Shown here: piece after piece, positions 30,157-39,479 of the stretch
Numbering within the stretch: the stretch's first letter is position 1
How the letters are laid out: each line of letters opens with the position of its first letter
Source of the DNA: Candidatus Zambryskibacteria bacterium CG10_big_fil_rev_8_21_14_0_10_42_12
Lineage (GTDB): Bacteria; Patescibacteriota; Minisyncoccia; Phycocordibacterales; 1-14-0-10-42-12
DNA: 64,000 bases
Assembly: GCA_002787695.1 (NCBI GenBank)
Contig: PCXL01000011.1
Span: 138,250 to 202,249, forward strand
Direction: 5' to 3'
The notes under the pieces: generated by a model
Database searches by the model: none
Told to the model about the DNA's origin: nothing
Seen by the model: the letters and a program-made list of their open reading frames with translations, nothing else
Program-made: the position numbers and the translations under genes

Positions 30157-30903
30157 ATGAAAACATTTTATATTATTTTAGGTATATTACTCGTAGTATT
30201 AGGTGGTTTTTGGCTATTGGGTAGTAGGGAGGCTGGGGACGATACTCAGAACATAACGACAGAATTAACAGAATATTTTGCAGAGAGAATGACAACCCTT
30301 GGCGTACGTGGAGGCATGATGCCGATTGAAGGATTTGATGCAGGGCTACTTATAGGAGCATTTCCAGGATTGATAAAAGCTGACTTTCAGGACGTGGAGA
30401 CATTTGAAGGCCACTATGAGATTCAGGCGGGAGAATTGGTATTTGTTCGAGATCAAGAACAGCCAATTTCTTCAGCTGAACGAACAGTCTCTAATGAAGG
30501 ATATGGTACATTACTGCAAAACCTGTCTACACGTCTTGATATGACTGTAAACTCTGAGAGTGATATTGATGCAATTATTGATACTATTAATATCAGTGAG
30601 ATAATTGAAACAAAGATTGATCAAGGTGCATCCGCCTACAGCATCACAATAGTTCCTCAGGAAGTACTAGAGGACAGCAGGTGTCCAATAGATGTTGAAT
30701 GTATTCAAGCAGGAACAGTGAGGGTAAAAGCGGTGGTAGAGAGTGATACAGGATCTGCAGAATATATATTTGAACCATTTAGTACGCTTACAATTGATGC
30801 GATAGATGTAACTCTTGTGCAGGTTGCACCCATGCCGGAAAGTGGAGTGACGATTGATCAAGATACATACGCATTTGTCTTTGAAGTTGTTGATAGAACG
30901 TAG
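30157..30903 (+). CDS. Hypothetical secreted protein
   Basis: N-terminal transmembrane/signal segment YIILGILLVVLGGFWLL and no recognised domain. Confidence 0.4.
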   Translation: MKTFYIILGILLVVLGGFWLLGSREAGDDTQNITTELTEYFAERMTTLGVRGGMMPIEGFDAGLLIGAFPGLIKADFQDVETFEGHYEIQAGELVFVRDQEQPISSAERTVSNEGYGTLLQNLSTRLDMTVNSESDIDAIIDTINISEIIETKIDQGASAYSITIVPQEVLEDSRCPIDVECIQAGTVRVKAVVESDTGSAEYIFEPFSTLTIDAIDVTLVQVAPMPESGVTIDQDTYAFVFEVVDRT

Positions 30904-30980
30904 AACCATACACCGCGCACGCGGTGTATAGTCCTAACTTCTTCATGAAAAATTCATATGAATAGCATTAATATAAAGGT

Positions 30981-31652
30981 ATGCGCATAGCACTTGTTGA
31001 AGATGAGGAAAAATTGGCAGACGTATTAAGTAATGGACTGGAACAAAAAGGGTATGCAGTAGATGTGTTTCATCACGGAGATAAAGCACTTAAGCATATG
31101 TCTGTTAACCATGCAGATTATGATGTAATGCTCCTGGATTTAATGTTGCCTGGTGCAGATGGCTTAACGATATGTAAGTCTCTTCGTGATGTGGGATCCA
31201 CGATACCAATTTTGATTCTCACTGCGCGTGACGAGATTGACACCAAGGTTGATCTGTTGATGACAGGTGCAGACGATTATATTGTTAAACCTTTTTCATT
31301 CAATGAGCTTGTGGCTCGTATCGCGGCAATTTCACGTAGACCTACGCATATGTCTCCTACAAAGCTTGTGGTAGGAGGTATTGTATTAGATCCCAAGACA
31401 CGTACCGTCAAAAAGGATGGTAAAGAAGTGCCACTTACACTAAAAGAGTTTGTGATGCTCGAATATTTTATGAAAAGACCAAATGAAGTCGTAAACAGAG
31501 AAGATCTATTGACTCATTTATGGGATTTTAATTTTTCATCATTTAGCAATGTAGTCGATGTCCATGTTAAAAACCTTAGGAAAAAGCTTGGTGATGATAA
31601 CCAAGACATATTGGAGACAATTCGCGGGGTGGGTTATCGCCTTAAAGCATAA
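30981..31652 (+). CDS. Two-component response regulator, OmpR/PhoB family
   Basis: Receiver domain (LVEDEE, LLDLMLPGADG, TARDE, DDYIVKPF) plus a winged-helix DNA-binding domain (VVDVHVKNLRKKLG...TIRGVGYRL). Confidence 0.9.
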   Translation: MRIALVEDEEKLADVLSNGLEQKGYAVDVFHHGDKALKHMSVNHADYDVMLLDLMLPGADGLTICKSLRDVGSTIPILILTARDEIDTKVDLLMTGADDYIVKPFSFNELVARIAAISRRPTHMSPTKLVVGGIVLDPKTRTVKKDGKEVPLTLKEFVMLEYFMKRPNEVVNREDLLTHLWDFNFSSFSNVVDVHVKNLRKKLGDDNQDILETIRGVGYRLKA

Positions 31653-32727
31653 ATACGGCACCGATCCATTTTTCAAGACTGAATTTAATGTTGTCAGTTT
31701 ACAAATATTATTTGCGACATGTTTAATCATCATTGTTGCAATTTATTTCAATAGTCTCTTTCAAGATACTACGGAGTCATTATTGGAAAATATTATTTCT
31801 GTTGTAGAAGGGAGACAAAATGTTGATTCTGCGAGCATCATCGAATTATCGCGGCAAGAAATGAAAAAAAGTCTCTTTTCTTTTTTTGGTGTTGCTATAG
31901 CACTGACAGTTGTATTTAGTTATGTGATCGGACGTATTACGCTCAAGCCAGCTCGAACTGCTCTCAAAACGCAAAAACGGTTTATTAGTGATATTGCACA
32001 CGAACTCAGGACACCAATTTCTGTGATTAAGACGAATATTGAAGTAACGCTCATTGATCAAAACATTGACCCGCGTATTAAAGCAATGCTTGAAAGTAAT
32101 ATTGAAGAACTTGACCGGACATCAGAAATTATCAATAACCTTCTCAGTTTTAACCAATTAATTCGTCCAGGTAAGATGCGGTTTGCAGAGGTGCATGTGG
32201 GACACGTAATCGATAAAAGTGTGGCACACCTTAAGCAGTTGGCAGCGAAGAAGCATATTGAAATCACTGTACATAAAGTTGAATCGTGCGTTGTTTTTGG
32301 TAATGCTACGGCAATTGAGCAAATAGTGACTAATTTGGTAAAAAATGCGATTACGTATACTTCTGATGGTGGTTTTATAAAAATAGTGGTGGAACCGTAT
32401 TATGGAGAAAACGTACTTATTTCGGTGGAGGATACTGGGGTAGGTATATCACAAGATGATTTGGCGCATATATTTGAACCATTTTATCGTGCGGAGCGAT
32501 CACGAAACAAAAATATAGGTTCTGGCGGCAGTGGTCTTGGTCTCACAATCGTGAGTGAGCTTGTAAAGTTACATTCAGGTAGAATTTCAATTCGTAGTTA
32601 TCCTAATAAAGGTACAACTGTTAACGTGCTGTTGCCTATTAATAATGCTACGCATCTACGCATTAAGGAAAAAGTTAACCAGAAAAATGAAGTTACGGTT
32701 GATTTTTATAATACACACAATACGTAA
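31558..32727 (+). CDS. Sensor histidine kinase (HisKA + HATPase_c), membrane-bound
   Basis: H-box ISDIAHELRTPISVI, N-box LVKNAITYT, and G boxes DTGVGI and GGSGLGLTIV, with two N-terminal transmembrane helices. The start is uncertain (the ORF overlaps the response-regulator 3' end); a later Met such as 31591 is possible. Confidence 0.85.
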   Translation: MSMLKTLGKSLVMITKTYWRQFAGWVIALKHKYGTDPFFKTEFNVVSLQILFATCLIIIVAIYFNSLFQDTTESLLENIISVVEGRQNVDSASIIELSRQEMKKSLFSFFGVAIALTVVFSYVIGRITLKPARTALKTQKRFISDIAHELRTPISVIKTNIEVTLIDQNIDPRIKAMLESNIEELDRTSEIINNLLSFNQLIRPGKMRFAEVHVGHVIDKSVAHLKQLAAKKHIEITVHKVESCVVFGNATAIEQIVTNLVKNAITYTSDGGFIKIVVEPYYGENVLISVEDTGVGISQDDLAHIFEPFYRAERSRNKNIGSGGSGLGLTIVSELVKLHSGRISIRSYPNKGTTVNVLLPINNATHLRIKEKVNQKNEVTVDFYNTHNT

Positions 32728-32944
32728 CTTTGTTTCATATTTTCTTCACGCACTATCTTTATAATAAGAAACAGAACAGATGGTGCACTCTGTAAGTTCC
32801 TATCTATTACTTGACTAATAAATTACCAAATTACTTATTGGTTTTATAATATTCTTTATATAATATGAAATACGTAAACACTATGGTGTGTGCGTGTGGT
32901 GTTTTAGAAGGTGGTGTGCATATATACACAATTAGCAATTTGTA

Positions 32945-32982
32945 GGGGAGGTCACGCGTTGTTCGCCACGCGTGACCTCCCC
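32945..32982 (+). terminator. Very stable 14-bp perfect hairpin (ggggaggtcacgcg / cgcgtgacctcccc) followed by gcttttata, about 70 nt upstream of typA
   Basis: Perfect GC-rich inverted repeat with a 10-nt loop and a T-rich tail on the + strand only. It is either the terminator of an upstream transcript or small RNA, or an attenuator in the typA leader. Confidence 0.55.
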
Positions 32983-33054
32983 GCTTTTATATACTCCTTC
33001 CTAAAATTGCATAAATATGCTTTAATTCACCTCTTTGTGCAAAAGCACTAAGGG

Positions 33055-34854
33055 GTGAATTACATTATGGAAATCAGAAACATAGCCATTATTGCTCACG
33101 TTGACCACGGTAAGACTACGCTTACTGATGCTTTAATGCGTGAGACCGGAATGGTTGAAGAAGGAGTGAGTATGGACTCAAATACGCTTGAAAAGGAGCG
33201 CGGTATTACGATTTACTCAAAAAATACCTCAATCAACTACAAAGGGACGAAGATAAATATTGTTGATACACCAGGACACGCCGACTTTAGTTCAGAGGTT
33301 GAGCGTGTACTCCGGTCTATCGATTCTGTCGTGTTGCTTGTTGACGCACAGGAAGGTCCTATGCCACAGACTCGGTTTGTGCTCAAAAAATCTCTTGAAC
33401 TCGGCCATAAGCCTATTGTCGTACTTAACAAAATAGACAAACCGGCCGCAGACCCAAAACGAGTGCATGACGAAATCCTAGAGCTCTTTTTTGATCTGGG
33501 AGCAAGTGAGAACCAGGTAGAATTTACTACGGTCTATGCTATTGGCCGCGATGGTGTAGCGATGAAAAACATCGACGATGAACGAAAGAATCTCGAACCA
33601 TTACTCGATGTGATTCTTGAAGAAGTTCCTGCGGCTTCAGGTAAGAATGATGCGCCTCTCCGTGCCCAACCATTTAACCTCGGATACGATAACTTCCTTG
33701 GACGTCTCGCTATTGCACGTGTCTATGAAGGAACACTCTCCGTCGGAGATCAGGTATTTAGGCACAAAGTTTCTGGAGGTGTTGAGAAAGGAAAAATCAC
33801 GAAATTATTTACCTTTGAAGGGCTTACTCGAAGAGAAGTTAATACTGTCGAATCGGGTGATATTGTAATGATCGCTGGTATACCAGAGGTTTATATTGGA
33901 GATACTATTTCAAAAGACGAGAACACAGAACCGCTACCAGCTATTTCGGTTGATGAACCAACCATTGCGCTGACATTTTTAGTAAACGATTCTCCATTTG
34001 CAGGACGAGAAGGCAAATTTGTCACTGGTCGACAGATTCGTGAACGACTGGAAAAAGAACTTGAAGTAAATGTCGGACTCAAAGTATTTTTCATAGATGA
34101 TGGGATTAAGGTGTTGGGTCGTGGTGAACTTCATATTGCAATTTTACTTGAAAACATGAGCCGTGAAGGGTATGAGGTACAAGTCTCACAACCACAAGTT
34201 ATTATTAAAAACATTCTCGGTGTACGAAAAGAGCCGTTTGAAGAAGTGACTATTGATGTACCAGCGGGTGTCGAAGGATCTATCATTGAAAAGCTTTCAA
34301 AGCGAGGATCTATCATGACCAATATGAAGCAGGATGGAAACGTCGTGCGCCTGACCTTTGAAGGACCAACACGAGGACTTCTCGGATATCGTGGTCAGTT
34401 TATTGTTGATACAAAAGGTGAAGGTATTTTTGCGTCTCGTGTGATTGGCTTTAAACCATACGCAGGTGTTATCGAGAAACGACAAGTTGGCTCTATGATA
34501 TCTATGGAAAATGGTAAGGCGCTTGCTTTTGCACTCGACAACCTTCAGACACGCGGAACACTTTATATCGAACCGGGAACAGAAGTATACGAAGGTATGG
34601 TTGTAGGTAACACCGTCAAAGGAGAAGAAATGACAGTGAATCCAACGAAAGGAAAACAGCTCACTAACATGCGTGCATCTGGGTCTGACGGCTCTGTTTA
34701 TCTCAATCCTGCACTTAAAATAACTATTGAACGAGGACTTGAGATCATGTCTGATGACGAATATCTCGAAGTGACTCCTAAAAACGTCCGCCTCCGTAAA
34801 AAATATCTCACCGAAACAGAGCGTAAGAAGCATGAGAGGAAGAGTGAAGTATAG
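33055..34854 (+). CDS. typA: Translational GTPase TypA/BipA
   Basis: IAIIAHVDHGKTTLTDALM, DTPGHADF and NKIDK G-motifs. The domain order and 599-aa length match BipA. The start may be 33067 (MEIRN). Confidence 0.9.
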   Translation: MNYIMEIRNIAIIAHVDHGKTTLTDALMRETGMVEEGVSMDSNTLEKERGITIYSKNTSINYKGTKINIVDTPGHADFSSEVERVLRSIDSVVLLVDAQEGPMPQTRFVLKKSLELGHKPIVVLNKIDKPAADPKRVHDEILELFFDLGASENQVEFTTVYAIGRDGVAMKNIDDERKNLEPLLDVILEEVPAASGKNDAPLRAQPFNLGYDNFLGRLAIARVYEGTLSVGDQVFRHKVSGGVEKGKITKLFTFEGLTRREVNTVESGDIVMIAGIPEVYIGDTISKDENTEPLPAISVDEPTIALTFLVNDSPFAGREGKFVTGRQIRERLEKELEVNVGLKVFFIDDGIKVLGRGELHIAILLENMSREGYEVQVSQPQVIIKNILGVRKEPFEEVTIDVPAGVEGSIIEKLSKRGSIMTNMKQDGNVVRLTFEGPTRGLLGYRGQFIVDTKGEGIFASRVIGFKPYAGVIEKRQVGSMISMENGKALAFALDNLQTRGTLYIEPGTEVYEGMVVGNTVKGEEMTVNPTKGKQLTNMRASGSDGSVYLNPALKITIERGLEIMSDDEYLEVTPKNVRLRKKYLTETERKKHERKSEV

Positions 34855-34901
34855 ACACATCCTGATAATCAAATGTAAATAGGAGAAAATAAAACGTAAT
34901 T

Positions 34902-35687
34902 ATGGATCCTAATATAAAGTTAAATAGGGCACGAAAACGCCTTGATGAGCTTCAAATCTGGATCGATAAGTATTTTTCTGTGACTCCATATAAAGTGTCA
35001 GTGCGTACCAACTCAGAAAATAGATCAGAATATTACCTGTGTGACGTAGTACCTGTTCCGGTCGATATTACATTACTGGCTTGTGAAGTCATACAAAACT
35101 TAAGAAGTTCACTAGATCATCTTGTGTATAAAGCTTTTAAAACTGATCCTGCAAATAATAAAAAGGATGGGTCACGTATTTGTTTTCCCATAAATGATAG
35201 TAAAGAAGGATATGATCTTGAAAAGAATAAAAAAATTGTAGGTGTGCCACAAGCAATTAGAGACAAAATTGACGTGTATAAACCGTATAAAGAAGGAAAT
35301 ATTATACTTTGGCAGCTACATAAGCTAAATAATATTGATAAACACCGCTTACCTGTGACGGTTGGTTCAAGAAATGGTGGGGTTGATATAATGCCTAGTA
35401 TTTTGCAGACAATGGGCGCAATAACAAATCTAAAAAAATTTGATGAACTTCAAAAAAATACGGGACCACTTTATCTTGTTCCCTCTGACAATTCTCCAGT
35501 AAAGAAGGGAGATATACTCTTCGTTGATTTACCGGGTAAATCTCCGATACAAATGGATTTCCAATTTTTCATAACTTTTTATGAGCCTGGAATAATAATG
35601 GGAAGTGAAATTAAAATAACTCTAGAAAGTATGTATTCGGAAGTATCAAAAATCGTGCGTGAAGTTAATGAATTGTTTGTTGTTTAG
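34902..35687 (+). CDS. Hypothetical protein in a low-GC island, with a candidate N-terminal HEPN-like Rx4H motif (LRSSLDHLVYKAF)
   Basis: 261 aa and about 35% GC against roughly 43% for the window. No family recognised. The R-x4-H motif and a predicted alpha-helical N-terminus suggest HEPN. Confidence 0.4.
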   Translation: MDPNIKLNRARKRLDELQIWIDKYFSVTPYKVSVRTNSENRSEYYLCDVVPVPVDITLLACEVIQNLRSSLDHLVYKAFKTDPANNKKDGSRICFPINDSKEGYDLEKNKKIVGVPQAIRDKIDVYKPYKEGNIILWQLHKLNNIDKHRLPVTVGSRNGGVDIMPSILQTMGAITNLKKFDELQKNTGPLYLVPSDNSPVKKGDILFVDLPGKSPIQMDFQFFITFYEPGIIMGSEIKITLESMYSEVSKIVREVNELFVV

Positions 35688-36045
35688 CGTTGATTATACA
35701 CACAAGAATTCTAGTATTGAATTAGACAAATATTGACTTTTATCTAAATACTTGCTATTGTGGCTTGCGTAAGGAATCTCCCCACATGCTTAGGGCATTT
35801 TAGAAAGAGAAGCCCTACAGCAGATAATCGAAGCTTTATATCTATTACTGCTTTATTTAACCAGAACTTTGTTTAAAATTCTGGACTACTACGAATTCGT
35901 ATAACGGGCTGCAAACCAGCGCTTCGAAAACCTCAACGTAACGCTGTTATGTTTCGCTTTTCTCAGCGAGTTTTCGCCTCGTTCTACATCTTCTCGTTAC
36001 GTCAATAATTTTAAACAAAGTTCTTATCCCTAAGGGTGCTTATTT

Positions 36046-37350
36046 ATGTATAAAACAAAAAACAATTTTAAAAGTGGCAAGCGGTCATTTGGTGGTCGCG
36101 GCTCATTTCAGAAACGACGTGGCAGCCAGAATCATGGTTCTCGCGGTCGTGGTCCGAAACCTTCGTATATCGATGAATCGAAGCTTATTAATCGTGCAGA
36201 AGTAGAAACTGTTACTGAAGCGTATGTACCGACACATACGTTTAATGACTTTGCGGTTGATGAACGGATTAAACAAAACTTGTCACGAAGCGGTTTTGTA
36301 ACGCCAACACCTATTCAGGATCAGACAATTCCACATGCGCTCAAAGGAAGAGATGTCGTAGGTATTGCAAACACCGGAACAGGAAAAACGCTCGCGTTTA
36401 TCTTGCCGCTTTTGGATAAGGCACTCAAAAACCCACGTGAGAAAATGCTCATCGTAGCGCCGACTCGTGAGCTTGCACAACAGATCGAAGCAGAGCTATT
36501 TAAGTTTACAAAAGGACTTAATATCTTTTCTGTTGTGGGTGTAGGTGGTCTGCCTATTTACAAGCAAATATCGTTCTTGAAGCGCGGGTATACATTTGTG
36601 ATCGGTACACCAGGGCGCCTCATGGACTTGCGAGACCGCAAAGCACTTGATTTTTCAAAGTTCAATACAGTTGTACTCGACGAAGCAGACCGCATGTTAG
36701 ACATGGGATTTATTAAAGACATTGAATCGATGCTTAAAGAAATGCCGGCGAATCGTCAGACACTCTTTTTCTCAGCGACTATGTCACGAGAAATCGAAGC
36801 ACTTATCGGACGATTTTTGAAAGACCATGTGACCGTATCTGTAAAGACACGCGAGACATCAAAGACTATTGATCAGGACGTGGTGCGTATTAACGGAGGT
36901 GCATCAAAACTTGAAACTTTGGCAGAAATGCTCATTAAAGAAGAATTTGAAAAAGTACTTATCTTCGGAAAAACAAAACGAGGTGTAGAAGATCTGTCAC
37001 GATCACTCGTAGCGAAAGGTTTTAAATCCGAATCTGTTCATGGTGATAAGGCACAGTCACAAAGACAGCGATCCCTCCTTGCCTTTAAACGAAACAATGT
37101 GCAAATCCTTGTTGCAACGGATGTGGCCGCACGTGGTCTTGATATCCCAAATGTGAGTCATGTGATCAACTTTGATATGCCAGCAACATATGAAGACTAT
37201 GTGCACCGTATCGGACGAACTGGTCGTGGTGGTAAAACAGGAAAGGCACTTACGTTTGTTGAAGAACGTGCACCTAGACATTCACAAGGAGACAGACCAA
37301 AAAGGCAGTTTACACCACAAAGACACGCAGCAAACCGCTATAGTCGGTAA
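36046..37350 (+). CDS. DEAD-box ATP-dependent RNA helicase with an N-terminal Arg/Gly-rich tail
   Basis: Q-motif (FAVDERIKQNL...PTPIQ), motif I ANTGTGKTLAF, motif II VLDEADRML, SAT, and motif VI HRIGRTGRGG. The N-terminal tail is GKRSFGGRGSFQKRRGSQNHGSRGRG. Confidence 0.9.
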   Translation: MYKTKNNFKSGKRSFGGRGSFQKRRGSQNHGSRGRGPKPSYIDESKLINRAEVETVTEAYVPTHTFNDFAVDERIKQNLSRSGFVTPTPIQDQTIPHALKGRDVVGIANTGTGKTLAFILPLLDKALKNPREKMLIVAPTRELAQQIEAELFKFTKGLNIFSVVGVGGLPIYKQISFLKRGYTFVIGTPGRLMDLRDRKALDFSKFNTVVLDEADRMLDMGFIKDIESMLKEMPANRQTLFFSATMSREIEALIGRFLKDHVTVSVKTRETSKTIDQDVVRINGGASKLETLAEMLIKEEFEKVLIFGKTKRGVEDLSRSLVAKGFKSESVHGDKAQSQRQRSLLAFKRNNVQILVATDVAARGLDIPNVSHVINFDMPATYEDYVHRIGRTGRGGKTGKALTFVEERAPRHSQGDRPKRQFTPQRHAANRYSR

Positions 37351-37769: not shown

Positions 37770-39479
37770 TTAGTCATCATCTTCCTCATCGCCGTCATTA
37801 TCATCATTGAGCTTCTTAATCTTTTTGATGAAATCGAAAGCGTCATCTAATCGGTCAAACCTGTTAGCATTATATCGTGCGTAGTATGAGGTTTTGCCAG
37901 ATGCTACATAACTTACACACTGACCTTGGTTCTTGAATCCTAGATCTGGGTAGTTTTGCCACCCGCCTTTCTTACAATCATCCTTGTCCTCTGGCTCATC
38001 ACCGTGGTCGTCATTGTCGTCATCATCGTCATCTCCGTTTTCATCATCTTCTACTGTAGTGGTATGAGAATCACTGTTGTTTGAGAGATTCGTATCAGTG
38101 TCGTCATCACTACTATCTGCTGTTGCAGTGTTTATGATAGTACCAGTTGCGTTTGCTAGTACACGTATATGAAGTGTTGCAGATTCATCATCGGCAAGTG
38201 TGCCAACTATCCACTTGCTCGTAGATGCCGTGTATGTACCTTTCGTAGATGAAGCACTCTTGAATTCAAGACCACTAGGTAATACATCTGTCACTACAAC
38301 GTCTGTCGCTTCTTCAGGACCATTATTTGTAACGATAATGGTGTATGTGAATTTGTGATCAATTTCTACTGTATTTGTTGCTGTCTTTGAGATAGCAAGG
38401 TCAATGTTGTTATCTTCCTCTACAACTGTTTCGTCGATGTTGAATTCACGAGTGAGGCGAAGATCTGGCTGACCCGCATCATCTGTTGGATTAAAGATGA
38501 AACAATATGTACCAGGAGTGGTGGTGCTAGTATCAATCGTTGCACTGAATGATGCTCCGTTCCATGAGAATACATCACTTTTACCATCTACGTTTCCAAA
38601 GACTGTCGTCGTTGCTGCTACACAAGTTCCTGCGCGTACGGCCCACTGCACTGCGTCGTCGTTTATATCATCCCCATCATCATATGTTGCGGACAATGTT
38701 GTTGTGCCAGTAACATGTTGATTTTCGGTGGGAGCAGTAATAGCGCCAACTGGTTCAATCATCGTTTCACTTGGCTCAAAGTCAAAGATATTGGTATGCT
38801 CGTCAATTTCAATGATGAAATTGTCTACATTACCTTCAAATCCTCCTGCCCAGGGTCCGCCTGCTTTGAATTGAATAGCGCCTGTTGTTGTGCCTGCATT
38901 TCGTACGCCTGCATTAGGGAATGCCGTGAGTACCTCAGTCCATGTACATGGATTGCTTTGAGGACATGTTGCGTCACCTGGGGCGCCTGAAAACCACCAG
39001 TTTCCGTCAGGTGCATTGTCGAGCGTGTTCCATGTCTGCCATTCTCCTGTGTTAACGGTATTCGTAAAGTATGGTTCGTACACGAGACGACCTTGCCATG
39101 TGGTTGTTGCGTCTGTGGTGTCCGTGTCAATATCTAACTGGAGTGATGGAGCTAGTGCGGCTGTACCTGTTGCGCGGTAGCTGTTGTACGCAAGTGTTTC
39201 AATAGTATCAAGTCGTATTCCTTGGAATGAAAATGTACCAAGAAGGAGACGGCCTGTATCGTCAACACTCATATGAGCGCTACCTTCGCCTGCAGGCGCT
39301 GTCAAAGGTCCGAGCTCAAATGAGCCGTTACCTTCTGCTATTTCCTCATAAAACCACCAGTCATTCATGTTGTCCGGAGAAACTACTGTGGTGGTGCTAT
39401 GATCGGCGAGCACAAACAGTGGACCCGCGATCAGTGCAGTAGCAGCTCCTATTGATATAAGAATTTTTTTATATGTCAT
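37770..39479 (-). CDS. Secreted surface protein with a DUF11 repeat domain and a C-terminal poly-Asp/Glu tail
   Basis: Signal peptide (KKILISIGAATALIAGPLFVLA). A DUF11-like segment (TYTIIVTNNGPEEATDVVVTDVLPSGLEF...GTL..ESATLHIRV). A C-terminus of ENGDDDDDDNDDHGDEPEDKDD...DDNDGDEEDDD. Confidence 0.6.
   Translation of the reverse strand: MTYKKILISIGAATALIAGPLFVLADHSTTTVVSPDNMNDWWFYEEIAEGNGSFELGPLTAPAGEGSAHMSVDDTGRLLLGTFSFQGIRLDTIETLAYNSYRATGTAALAPSLQLDIDTDTTDATTTWQGRLVYEPYFTNTVNTGEWQTWNTLDNAPDGNWWFSGAPGDATCPQSNPCTWTEVLTAFPNAGVRNAGTTTGAIQFKAGGPWAGGFEGNVDNFIIEIDEHTNIFDFEPSETMIEPVGAITAPTENQHVTGTTTLSATYDDGDDINDDAVQWAVRAGTCVAATTTVFGNVDGKSDVFSWNGASFSATIDTSTTTPGTYCFIFNPTDDAGQPDLRLTREFNIDETVVEEDNNIDLAISKTATNTVEIDHKFTYTIIVTNNGPEEATDVVVTDVLPSGLEFKSASSTKGTYTASTSKWIVGTLADDESATLHIRVLANATGTIINTATADSSDDDTDTNLSNNSDSHTTTVEDDENGDDDDDDNDDHGDEPEDKDDCKKGGWQNYPDLGFKNQGQCVSYVASGKTSYYARYNANRFDRLDDAFDFIKKIKKLNDDNDGDEEDDD

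Follow-up and report, generated by a model that had tools for sequence, protein, structure and literature searches.

A 261-aa protein encoded between typA and a DEAD-box RNA helicase gene was found to belong to a large family of unannotated proteins, and its gene to be an acquired, GC-poor insert that the sister species lacks at the same place. Members of the family travel as solo cargo of mobile elements, and the predicted structure of the protein is a four-helix bundle that resembles HEPN domains. Our leading explanation, which we hold tentatively and with slightly less than even confidence, is that the protein is a mobile, solo, non-canonical HEPN-like nuclease, acquired as single-gene cargo, that would act as an abortive-infection effector.

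The window, by which we mean the whole 64,000-nucleotide stretch of DNA that was analysed, comes from a metagenome-assembled genome of Candidatus Zambryskibacteria (CPR/Patescibacteria). The gene and its surroundings are laid out as follows.

33055-34854, + strand: typA/bipA, the left housekeeping flank (strong Pfam match; 94% amino-acid identity to the sister species)
34848-35730, + strand: acquired cassette without counterpart in the sister species (GC 33.2%; from blastn against the sister contig L195 and alignment; no family homolog in the sister contigs L195-L198)
34902-35687, + strand: 261-aa ORF of the large unannotated family (homolog searches, AlphaFold2 (AF2) model, predicted four-helix bundle)
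36046-37350, + strand: DEAD-box RNA helicase, the right housekeeping flank (strong Pfam match; 83% amino-acid identity to the sister species)

The ORF is intact in the ORF listing of the window, and its product is 100% identical to the NCBI hypothetical protein COV34_01760. An earlier note on this DNA had put the GC content of the gene at about 35%, clearly below that of the typA and helicase genes, and the measured values agree with it: 34.0% for the ORF against 42.9% for typA, 43.5% for the DEAD-box gene and 41.6% for the window as a whole. Since this places the ORF at the 0.5th percentile among 786-bp windows of the 64-kb stretch, and since its GC3 is also reduced (24.8% vs about 35% for the neighbour genes), the low GC is genuine and not a chance fluctuation. 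The gene begins 47 nt downstream of typA. A sequence scan gave neither a convincing promoter for the gene nor a terminator downstream of it, and co-transcription with typA is probable.

Next to base composition, the acquisition of the gene was evident from comparison with a sister species, which was reached in a large protein database via its 83%-identical helicase. The window and the sister share the order typA, slot, DEAD-box helicase, small coiled-coil gene, CLIPPER-domain gene and RluA pseudouridine synthase gene. In the sister the slot is a 422-nt segment from the typA stop to the helicase promoter, and it holds an unrelated 107-aa ORF with a GC content of 44%. Kinship of this ORF with the 261-aa protein was considered and rejected (BLASTP E = 7). 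As the sister keeps the gene order and has an unrelated ORF in the slot, the 261-aa gene was acquired as a cassette. With blastn of the window against L195, homology stops at 34847 and restarts at 35731, a point that coincides with the -35 box of the helicase promoter, and from this break the segment 34848-35730 is read as having replaced, in this lineage, the content of a variable slot that lies between typA and the helicase promoter.

No homolog of the 261-aa protein was present at any of about 175 CPR helicase loci, and its nearest homolog shares 50% identity and lies in an unrelated neighbourhood. Helicase scans of representative genomes and JGI metagenomes yielded only relatives with at most 60% identity and showed that adjacency of typA and the DEAD-box gene is not general across CPR. 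A third helicase relative with 65% identity has a different genomic context. Within the species, three samples were 100% identical over the compared 3.8-5.5 kb (approximately) around the gene. Horizontal acquisition, which the earlier note had suggested from GC content, is thus backed by the absence of the gene from the syntenic slot of the sister, by the patchy occurrence of the family over phyla, phages and plasmids, and by the low GC of its genes in other hosts (see below). The pattern that the note had named as speaking against its proposal, homologs conserved throughout the lineage in housekeeping synteny, was not what we found at the sister slot or at the CPR helicase loci.

The family proved to be very large. 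Searching with the single sequence gave 105 homologs and searching with a profile 1,759, all of them hypothetical proteins of about 250-290 aa without a precomputed Pfam domain. A HMMER scan of 1.84 billion representatives of 50%-identity clusters returned 22,241 matches at E<=1e-3, with 7,411 at E<=1e-30. The family is spread over many phyla, at least eight of them bacterial including CPR, and named hosts include Ktedonobacteraceae, Methylotenera, Vulcanimicrobiaceae, Binatus, Dormiibacterota and Rhodanobacteraceae. The earlier remark that the protein belongs to no recognised family held throughout. Pfam gave no family and no HEPN model, either for the query at E<=1 or for 95 members at E<=0.1; NCBIfam had no match to the protein, and no family of PADLOC-DB v2.0.0 matched it at E<=10. 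With PHROGs, the query and 95 members gave nothing informative, only two unnamed PHROGs at E about 1e-3. Over Pfam, NCBIfam, PADLOC and PHROGs, the protein is matched by no HMM of a HEPN, Abi or defence family, and the 95 members gave no informative family in any of the four. A profile search against PDB sequences had 0 matches at E<=10, and a domain scan of the longer members for fusions showed no more than a DUF6941 fusion, seen once, and a zinc ribbon. The literature was also searched for the family, both in CPR and as a HEPN protein that stands alone, and yielded nothing specific.

We then looked at where the members are encoded. Members were detected in the Gordonia phages ZiggyZoo and Samba (gp32 in ZiggyZoo), in the Mycobacterium abscessus prophage prophiGD13-2, on 15 IMG/VR contigs and on conjugative or mobilizable plasmids of Arthrobacter. 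In ZiggyZoo and Samba the gene sits among small ORFs of the same strand, between the structural and tail genes and a serine integrase, the immunity repressor lying beyond, and ZiggyZoo gp32 is transcribed in the direction opposite to the structural genes. Such a position is the classical site of prophage-expressed accessory genes, and what temperate actinophages carry at the equivalent place is typically a defence gene expressed from the prophage (compare Butters gp57r). One member was located in an integrative element with ParB, DnaB and an integrase, with a SIR2_2 gene one ORF away, and another in a prophage-like island with an S24 repressor, a weak PycTM match, an M48 peptidase and an integrase. 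A further member has a ThsB_TIR gene nearby and shares its island with SLFN_AlbA_2 and a DUF433/DUF5615 gene pair. Some members lie among housekeeping genes (L008), like the copy in the window.

The family gene was GC-poorer than its surroundings in 25 of 26 loci, with a mean gap of 7.6 points in hosts of 44-71% GC. The only neighbours to recur over 28 loci were IS1595 transposases (in 4 of them), serine recombinases (in 3) and phage packaging genes, and PADLOC recognised among 103 neighbours in 14 viral loci only one methyltransferase and one SIR2. The family is therefore robustly described as solo mobile-element cargo. The earlier note had also called the setting of the gene typical of Abi-like defence genes. 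This does not describe the family: known defence neighbours are occasional, and the consistent context is mobile-element cargo. Defence genes were seen beside the homologs in part only, at the SIR2_2 and ThsB_TIR/SLFN loci and, by a weak match, at the PycTM locus, so that a defence-island setting fits a minority of the family loci.

The structure of the protein was predicted with AlphaFold2 from a 95-sequence alignment, with a mean pLDDT of 96.0 and a pTM of 0.90. The model is a four-helix bundle (H1 3-26, H2 54-79, H3 134-147, H4 237-256) with a beta-hairpin at 30-49, a helical-hairpin insert with short helices at 101-111 and 117-125, and a variable alpha/beta insert at about 154-236 between H3 and H4. 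The up-down arrangement of the predicted helices resembles that of solved HEPN domains. What sets HEPN apart from other bundles of four helices is an insert that follows helix 2 and precedes helix 3 (PMC3710099), and the model has such an insert between its core helices 2 and 3 (residues 80-133). In the model, the protein thus has the fold and the topology by which HEPN is recognised. Foldseek against the PDB gave nothing significant for the model. A fold like the one that the earlier note had proposed was recovered at the level of predicted structure, but not as a significant Foldseek match to the PDB or as a profile link. In BFVD, Foldseek found one full-length unnamed phage protein of the same fold (A0A514TZW7, TM 0.66); as it is itself a member of the family, it was set aside as a functional lead.

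Conservation was counted in an alignment of 337 family members. It peaked in H2 (residues 61-80) and towards the end of H3 (141-150) and was lowest at 161-190, and two short segments stood out.

35097-35120, + strand: helix-2 motif N66-L-R68-S-S-L-D72-H73, the R-x4-H string of the earlier note (R68 in 325, D72 in 335 and H73 in 289 of 337)
35337-35348, + strand: loop D146-K147-H148-R149, where helix 3 ends; proposed catalytic centre (K147 and H148 in 337 of 337)

Besides the invariant K147 and H148, near-complete conservation was seen for D/E62 (336/337), P96 (335/337), L71 (334/337), R149 and G61 (329/337 each) and D146 (326/337). The string R68-x4-H73 (NLRSSLDH) had been read in the earlier note as the RNase motif of a HEPN protein in a helical N-terminal region. 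The string is there, and within a confidently predicted helix (54-79), but not at the canonical HEPN position, which is the end of helix 3 (PMC3710099). As a HEPN RNase motif it is not supported: it lies in helix 2, its histidine is replaced by Tyr, Gln or other residues in 14% of members (kept in 86%), and the invariant pair is K147-H148. The canonical position carries [ND]-[NIR]-I-D-K-H-R in the family, and in the model it is the D-K-H-R loop that occupies the canonical catalytic position of HEPN (PMC3710099). The canonical Rx4-6H is absent at this site, as the residues four to six positions before H148 are L142, N143 and N144. The protein does not have the canonical HEPN motif, and neither the scans with family models nor the profile search of PDB sequences showed a link to HEPN.

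The lengths of the predicted helices would place the end of H3 level with residues 62-68 (approximately) of H2, and for this reason R68, D72 and H73 on helix 2 and the K147-H148 loop probably form one site. D/E62 and D72 are both on helix 2, and their closeness to H148 is deduced from helix geometry. Where a conserved acidic residue is present in HEPN proteins, it is also on helix 2 and adjoins the catalytic motif (PMC3710099). An invariant Lys-His with conserved Arg and Asp has, as a sequence pattern, the look of a catalytic phosphoryl-transfer site.

In comparison with the HEPN superfamily (PMC3710099), the protein shares the helical insert between core helices 2 and 3 of the model, the invariant His where helix 3 ends or the next loop starts, the conserved polar or acidic helix-2 residues that in the model would face this His, and the association with conflict systems and mobile elements. 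It differs in that no HEPN Pfam model matches it, in having Leu or Asn instead of Arg before the invariant His, in carrying its Arg-x4-His string on helix 2, and in the beta-hairpin between H1 and H2 and the alpha/beta insert of about 85 residues between H3 and H4. We infer that the protein may work like a HEPN nuclease, as a candidate member of the superfamily.

Among the known systems, HepS was taken as the working model by analogy. HepS is a solo HEPN abortive-infection anticodon nuclease of the Salmonella prophage Gifsy-1, which is constitutively made as an auto-inhibited oligomer and activated by a phage structural protein (PMC13043305). HepS and the family are alike in being single-gene, prophage-borne and below 300 aa and in having no partner. 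However, HepS has a canonical motif (R100-x4-H105) from which that of the family differs, and no sequence similarity between them was detected. Butters gp57r is a standalone, prophage-expressed mycobacteriophage protein with a weak HEPN-like Rx4H, which blocks heterotypic phages and is not toxic alone, and for which a mechanism similar to that of HepS was suggested (bioRxiv 10.1101/2023.01.03.522681). Its motif, RDRCAH at residues 94-99, is again different from the family motif, and Butters was not recovered with tblastn of family members against the phage collection. The lactococcal HEPN Abi proteins (AbiD/AbiF Abi_2, AbiV, the C-terminal domain of AbiA, AbiJ and AbiU2) showed no Pfam or PADLOC match at E<=1-10, and they have canonical R[ND]xxxH motifs unlike that of the family.

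In the mechanism that we favour, the protein would be a putative metal-independent endoribonuclease with H148 as general acid/base. The scissile phosphate would be bound, and the transition state stabilised, by K147, R149 and R68; D72 and D146 would hold the basic residues in the right orientation. The less conserved H73 and the near-invariant R68 and D72 would be on helix 2, facing K147-H148. The enzyme would be made constitutively and kept inactive in uninfected cells, until a phage component, sensed via the poorly conserved alpha/beta insert (about 154-236), switched it on. Once activated, it would cut tRNA, rRNA or mRNA, and the infection would be aborted.

An alternative that we consider unlikely, and still take seriously, is that the HEPN-like scaffold serves the mobile element that carries it, and is not a host-defence RNase. 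It could then act in anti-defence, superinfection exclusion or addiction, or as an RNA- or nucleotide-binding regulator, and it may use a different kind of substrate (DNA, a second messenger made of nucleotides, a modified nucleotide). The most consistent context of the family, cargo of phages, plasmids and integrative elements and not clusters of known defence genes, agrees with such a role, and a function beneficial to the phage (anti-defence, exclusion) would yield an identical genomic context. HEPN domains were moreover first described as nucleotide-binding, some of them are non-catalytic, and the canonical motif is missing at the canonical site of our protein. Yet the invariant Lys-His with its conserved Arg and Asp looks catalytic, as for phosphoryl transfer. 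The chromosomal copies outside recognisable elements (the window and L008) and the copies that adjoin SIR2 or ThsB fit defence cargo, as does the typical role of prophage-expressed genes at the equivalent position in actinophages.

It was also considered whether the protein is the toxin of a toxin-antitoxin (TA) pair, the antitoxin being a small unannotated ORF or RNA next door, for example in the flanking non-coding DNA. Several homologs do occur in TA-rich patches with IS1595 transposase, HEPN toxins of the HepT type are classically paired with MNT antitoxins, and a structured non-coding region follows the gene in the window. Nevertheless, when all ORFs of 45 aa or more, on either strand and within 2.5 kb, were compared with one another over 28 loci, no conserved partner gene emerged, and a conserved antitoxin was accordingly dropped as a candidate. 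The single-gene architecture that the earlier note had described is hereby supported. At one locus with an MNT/HepT pair (L005), the pair is a module separate from the family gene. HepT proteins (5yep, 7ae2, 1ylm) have about 130 aa and an Rx4HxY motif and never occur without an MNT antitoxin, by which they are (poly)adenylylated, whereas the window protein has twice the size, another motif and no adjacent MNT gene, its flanks being typA and the DEAD-box helicase. ORFs of at least 40 aa in the flanking spacers are all on the opposite strand and mostly inside the coding sequence of typA or the helicase. Together with the separation of the gene from the structured RNA by the helicase promoter, described next, this leaves a toxin-antitoxin pair improbable.

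The earlier note had described a 355-nt AT-rich non-coding stretch as following the low-GC island. A stretch of low GC is present downstream of the gene, but it measures 358 nt (35688-36045) and, with a GC content of 36.9% at the 10th percentile of windows of the same size, it is mildly AT-rich and no statistical outlier. Only 35688-35730 is the tail of the cassette. As homology with the sister resumes at 35731, most of the spacer is outside the island and belongs to the DEAD-box helicase gene as its promoter and leader.

35731-35851, + strand: helicase promoter and proximal 5' leader (79% identical to the sister; -35 TTGACT at 35733-35738, -10 TATTGT at 35756-35761)
35852-36040, + strand: lineage-specific 189-nt insertion in the helicase 5' UTR (21 nt in the sister; from alignment, blastn and folding)

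The promoter is sigma-70-like (TTGACT-17-TATTGT, 35733-35761), and a conserved leader hairpin (TAGGGC...GCCCTA) follows within 35731-35851. Compared with shuffled sequence, the spacer has a far more stable fold (z -5.7), and so has the insertion, which forms one long imperfect hairpin at 35863-36024 with 24-nt inverted-repeat arms that are 92% complementary (MFE -53.9 kcal/mol, z -6.1; 0 of 200 shuffles equally stable). No RNA family was found with Rfam at E<=1 on 34000-37000, no homolog or second copy of the spacer with nhmmer against 189 loci and the window, and no copies of the arms in a mismatch search of the window other than the two arms themselves. The hairpin did not vary among three samples of the species. 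The insertion lies in the helicase leader, beyond a promoter that is conserved in the sister, and is an event independent of the gene cassette; it may have come in as a MITE-like element, or it may extend the helicase leader as a regulatory part.

Quite improbable, too, is that the protein is a generic four-helix bundle unrelated to HEPN, such as a metal-binding, hemerythrin-like or DinB-like protein, with a merely convergent topology. Several conserved His and Asp residues (H13, D62, D72, H73, H140, D146 and H148) could suggest metal binding, but H13 (80%), H140 (72%) and H73 are too variable among members for metal ligands, and the invariant set includes Lys and Arg, which fits phosphate chemistry. 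HEPN proteins ranked first and second and were strongly over-represented among the top matches, and the insert between H2 and H3 is a hallmark of HEPN (PMC3710099). Finally, that the gene is a housekeeping gene of the Zambryskibacteria lineage, its low GC coming from low expression or amino-acid bias and not from transfer, would suit its same-strand position between two housekeeping genes, shortly past typA and without an obvious promoter, but is effectively refuted and very improbable in view of the slot without the gene in a sister with 94%-identical TypA, the zero homologs at CPR helicase loci, the distant closest homolog in another context and the homologs in phages and plasmids.

Returning to the HEPN-like nuclease, a bolder form of this explanation is possible, although we find it doubtful. 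The protein would then be the founding example of a widespread unnamed nuclease family of more than 20,000 50%-identity clusters, HEPN-derived or convergent, with a rearranged site made of the D-K-H-R loop and a helix-2 Arg. Its members would be self-contained sensor-effector proteins of abortive infection, in which the alpha/beta insert reads the trigger. Should the prediction fail, the family would be one more mobile ORFan family. Cultivable carriers are at hand in the Gordonia phages ZiggyZoo and Samba (gp32) and the M. abscessus prophage prophiGD13-2. If the prediction is right, a family of tens of thousands of clusters of hypothetical proteins would gain a function, and a differently arranged catalytic site would be added to those of the solo immune effectors of HEPN type. 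This would help to define what the HEPN fold needs for RNA cleavage and to annotate defence cargo in phages and plasmids. For the organism, it would mean candidate defence cargo in an ultra-small CPR genome, with the replacement of the cassette documented against the sister species.

The slot between typA and the DEAD-box helicase gene, which holds the family gene in the window, was compared with that of the sister species, which has the same gene order around it. There the slot holds a 107-aa ORF with 44% GC that is unrelated to the slot gene of the window, has no Pfam match and has a terminator-like hairpin after it. In its behavior the slot is a hotspot where insertion or replacement recurs. 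The 5' side of typA also differed. At the corresponding location the sister species has no counterpart of the window's two-component system, and its gene upstream of typA is separated from typA by about 150 nt (L195 5435-5582). The two-component system is a second indel, directly upstream of typA, so typA is variable on both sides. The features are as follows.

L195 7459-7782, 107-aa ORF in the slot of the sister species
about 30775-33000, two-component system region of the window
30981-31652, response regulator
31558-32727, histidine kinase
35765-35851, leader of the DEAD-box helicase gene
35852-36040, 189-nt stretch inserted into the helicase 5' UTR (21 nt at the same place in the sister species)
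36046-37350, DEAD-box helicase gene
L199 5574-6000, non-coding region upstream of the helicase gene in the 65% relative
37770-39479 (-), 569-aa CLIPPER-domain protein

The 189-nt insertion folds as one long hairpin (35863-36024, z -6.1) that ends 21 nt before the helicase start codon. It had no Rfam match and no further copy within the window; it may be MITE-like or may serve as a regulatory stem specific to the lineage. The helicase genes of the window species, the sister species and the 65% relative are all preceded by long non-coding regions (about 220-430 nt), and a leader hairpin TAGGGC...GCCCTA is common to the first two. The leader may be autoregulatory or cold-responsive. The CLIPPER-domain protein, also conserved in the sister species, looks secreted and has a highly acidic, Asp/Glu-rich C-terminal tail.

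Across the family, the GC content of the gene was below that of its surroundings in 25 of the 26 loci compared (L001-L192; mean 7.6 points), in hosts ranging from 44% to 71% GC; low relative GC is a compositional signature of the whole family. At four independent loci an IS1595-family (ISXO2-like) transposase lies about 1 kb or less from the family gene.

L005 8944-9810, IS1595-family transposase
L095 5985-6971, IS1595-family transposase
L098 1340-2272, IS1595-family transposase
L101 6280-7509, IS1595-family transposase

Two rare fusions were found, one joining the family domain to a C-terminal DUF6941 (P0053, 410 aa) and one carrying an N-terminal zinc ribbon (P0210, 306 aa); these may give hints to partners or regulation of the family. 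The neighboring transposases suggest that the IS1595 family is one vehicle by which the family gene has spread.
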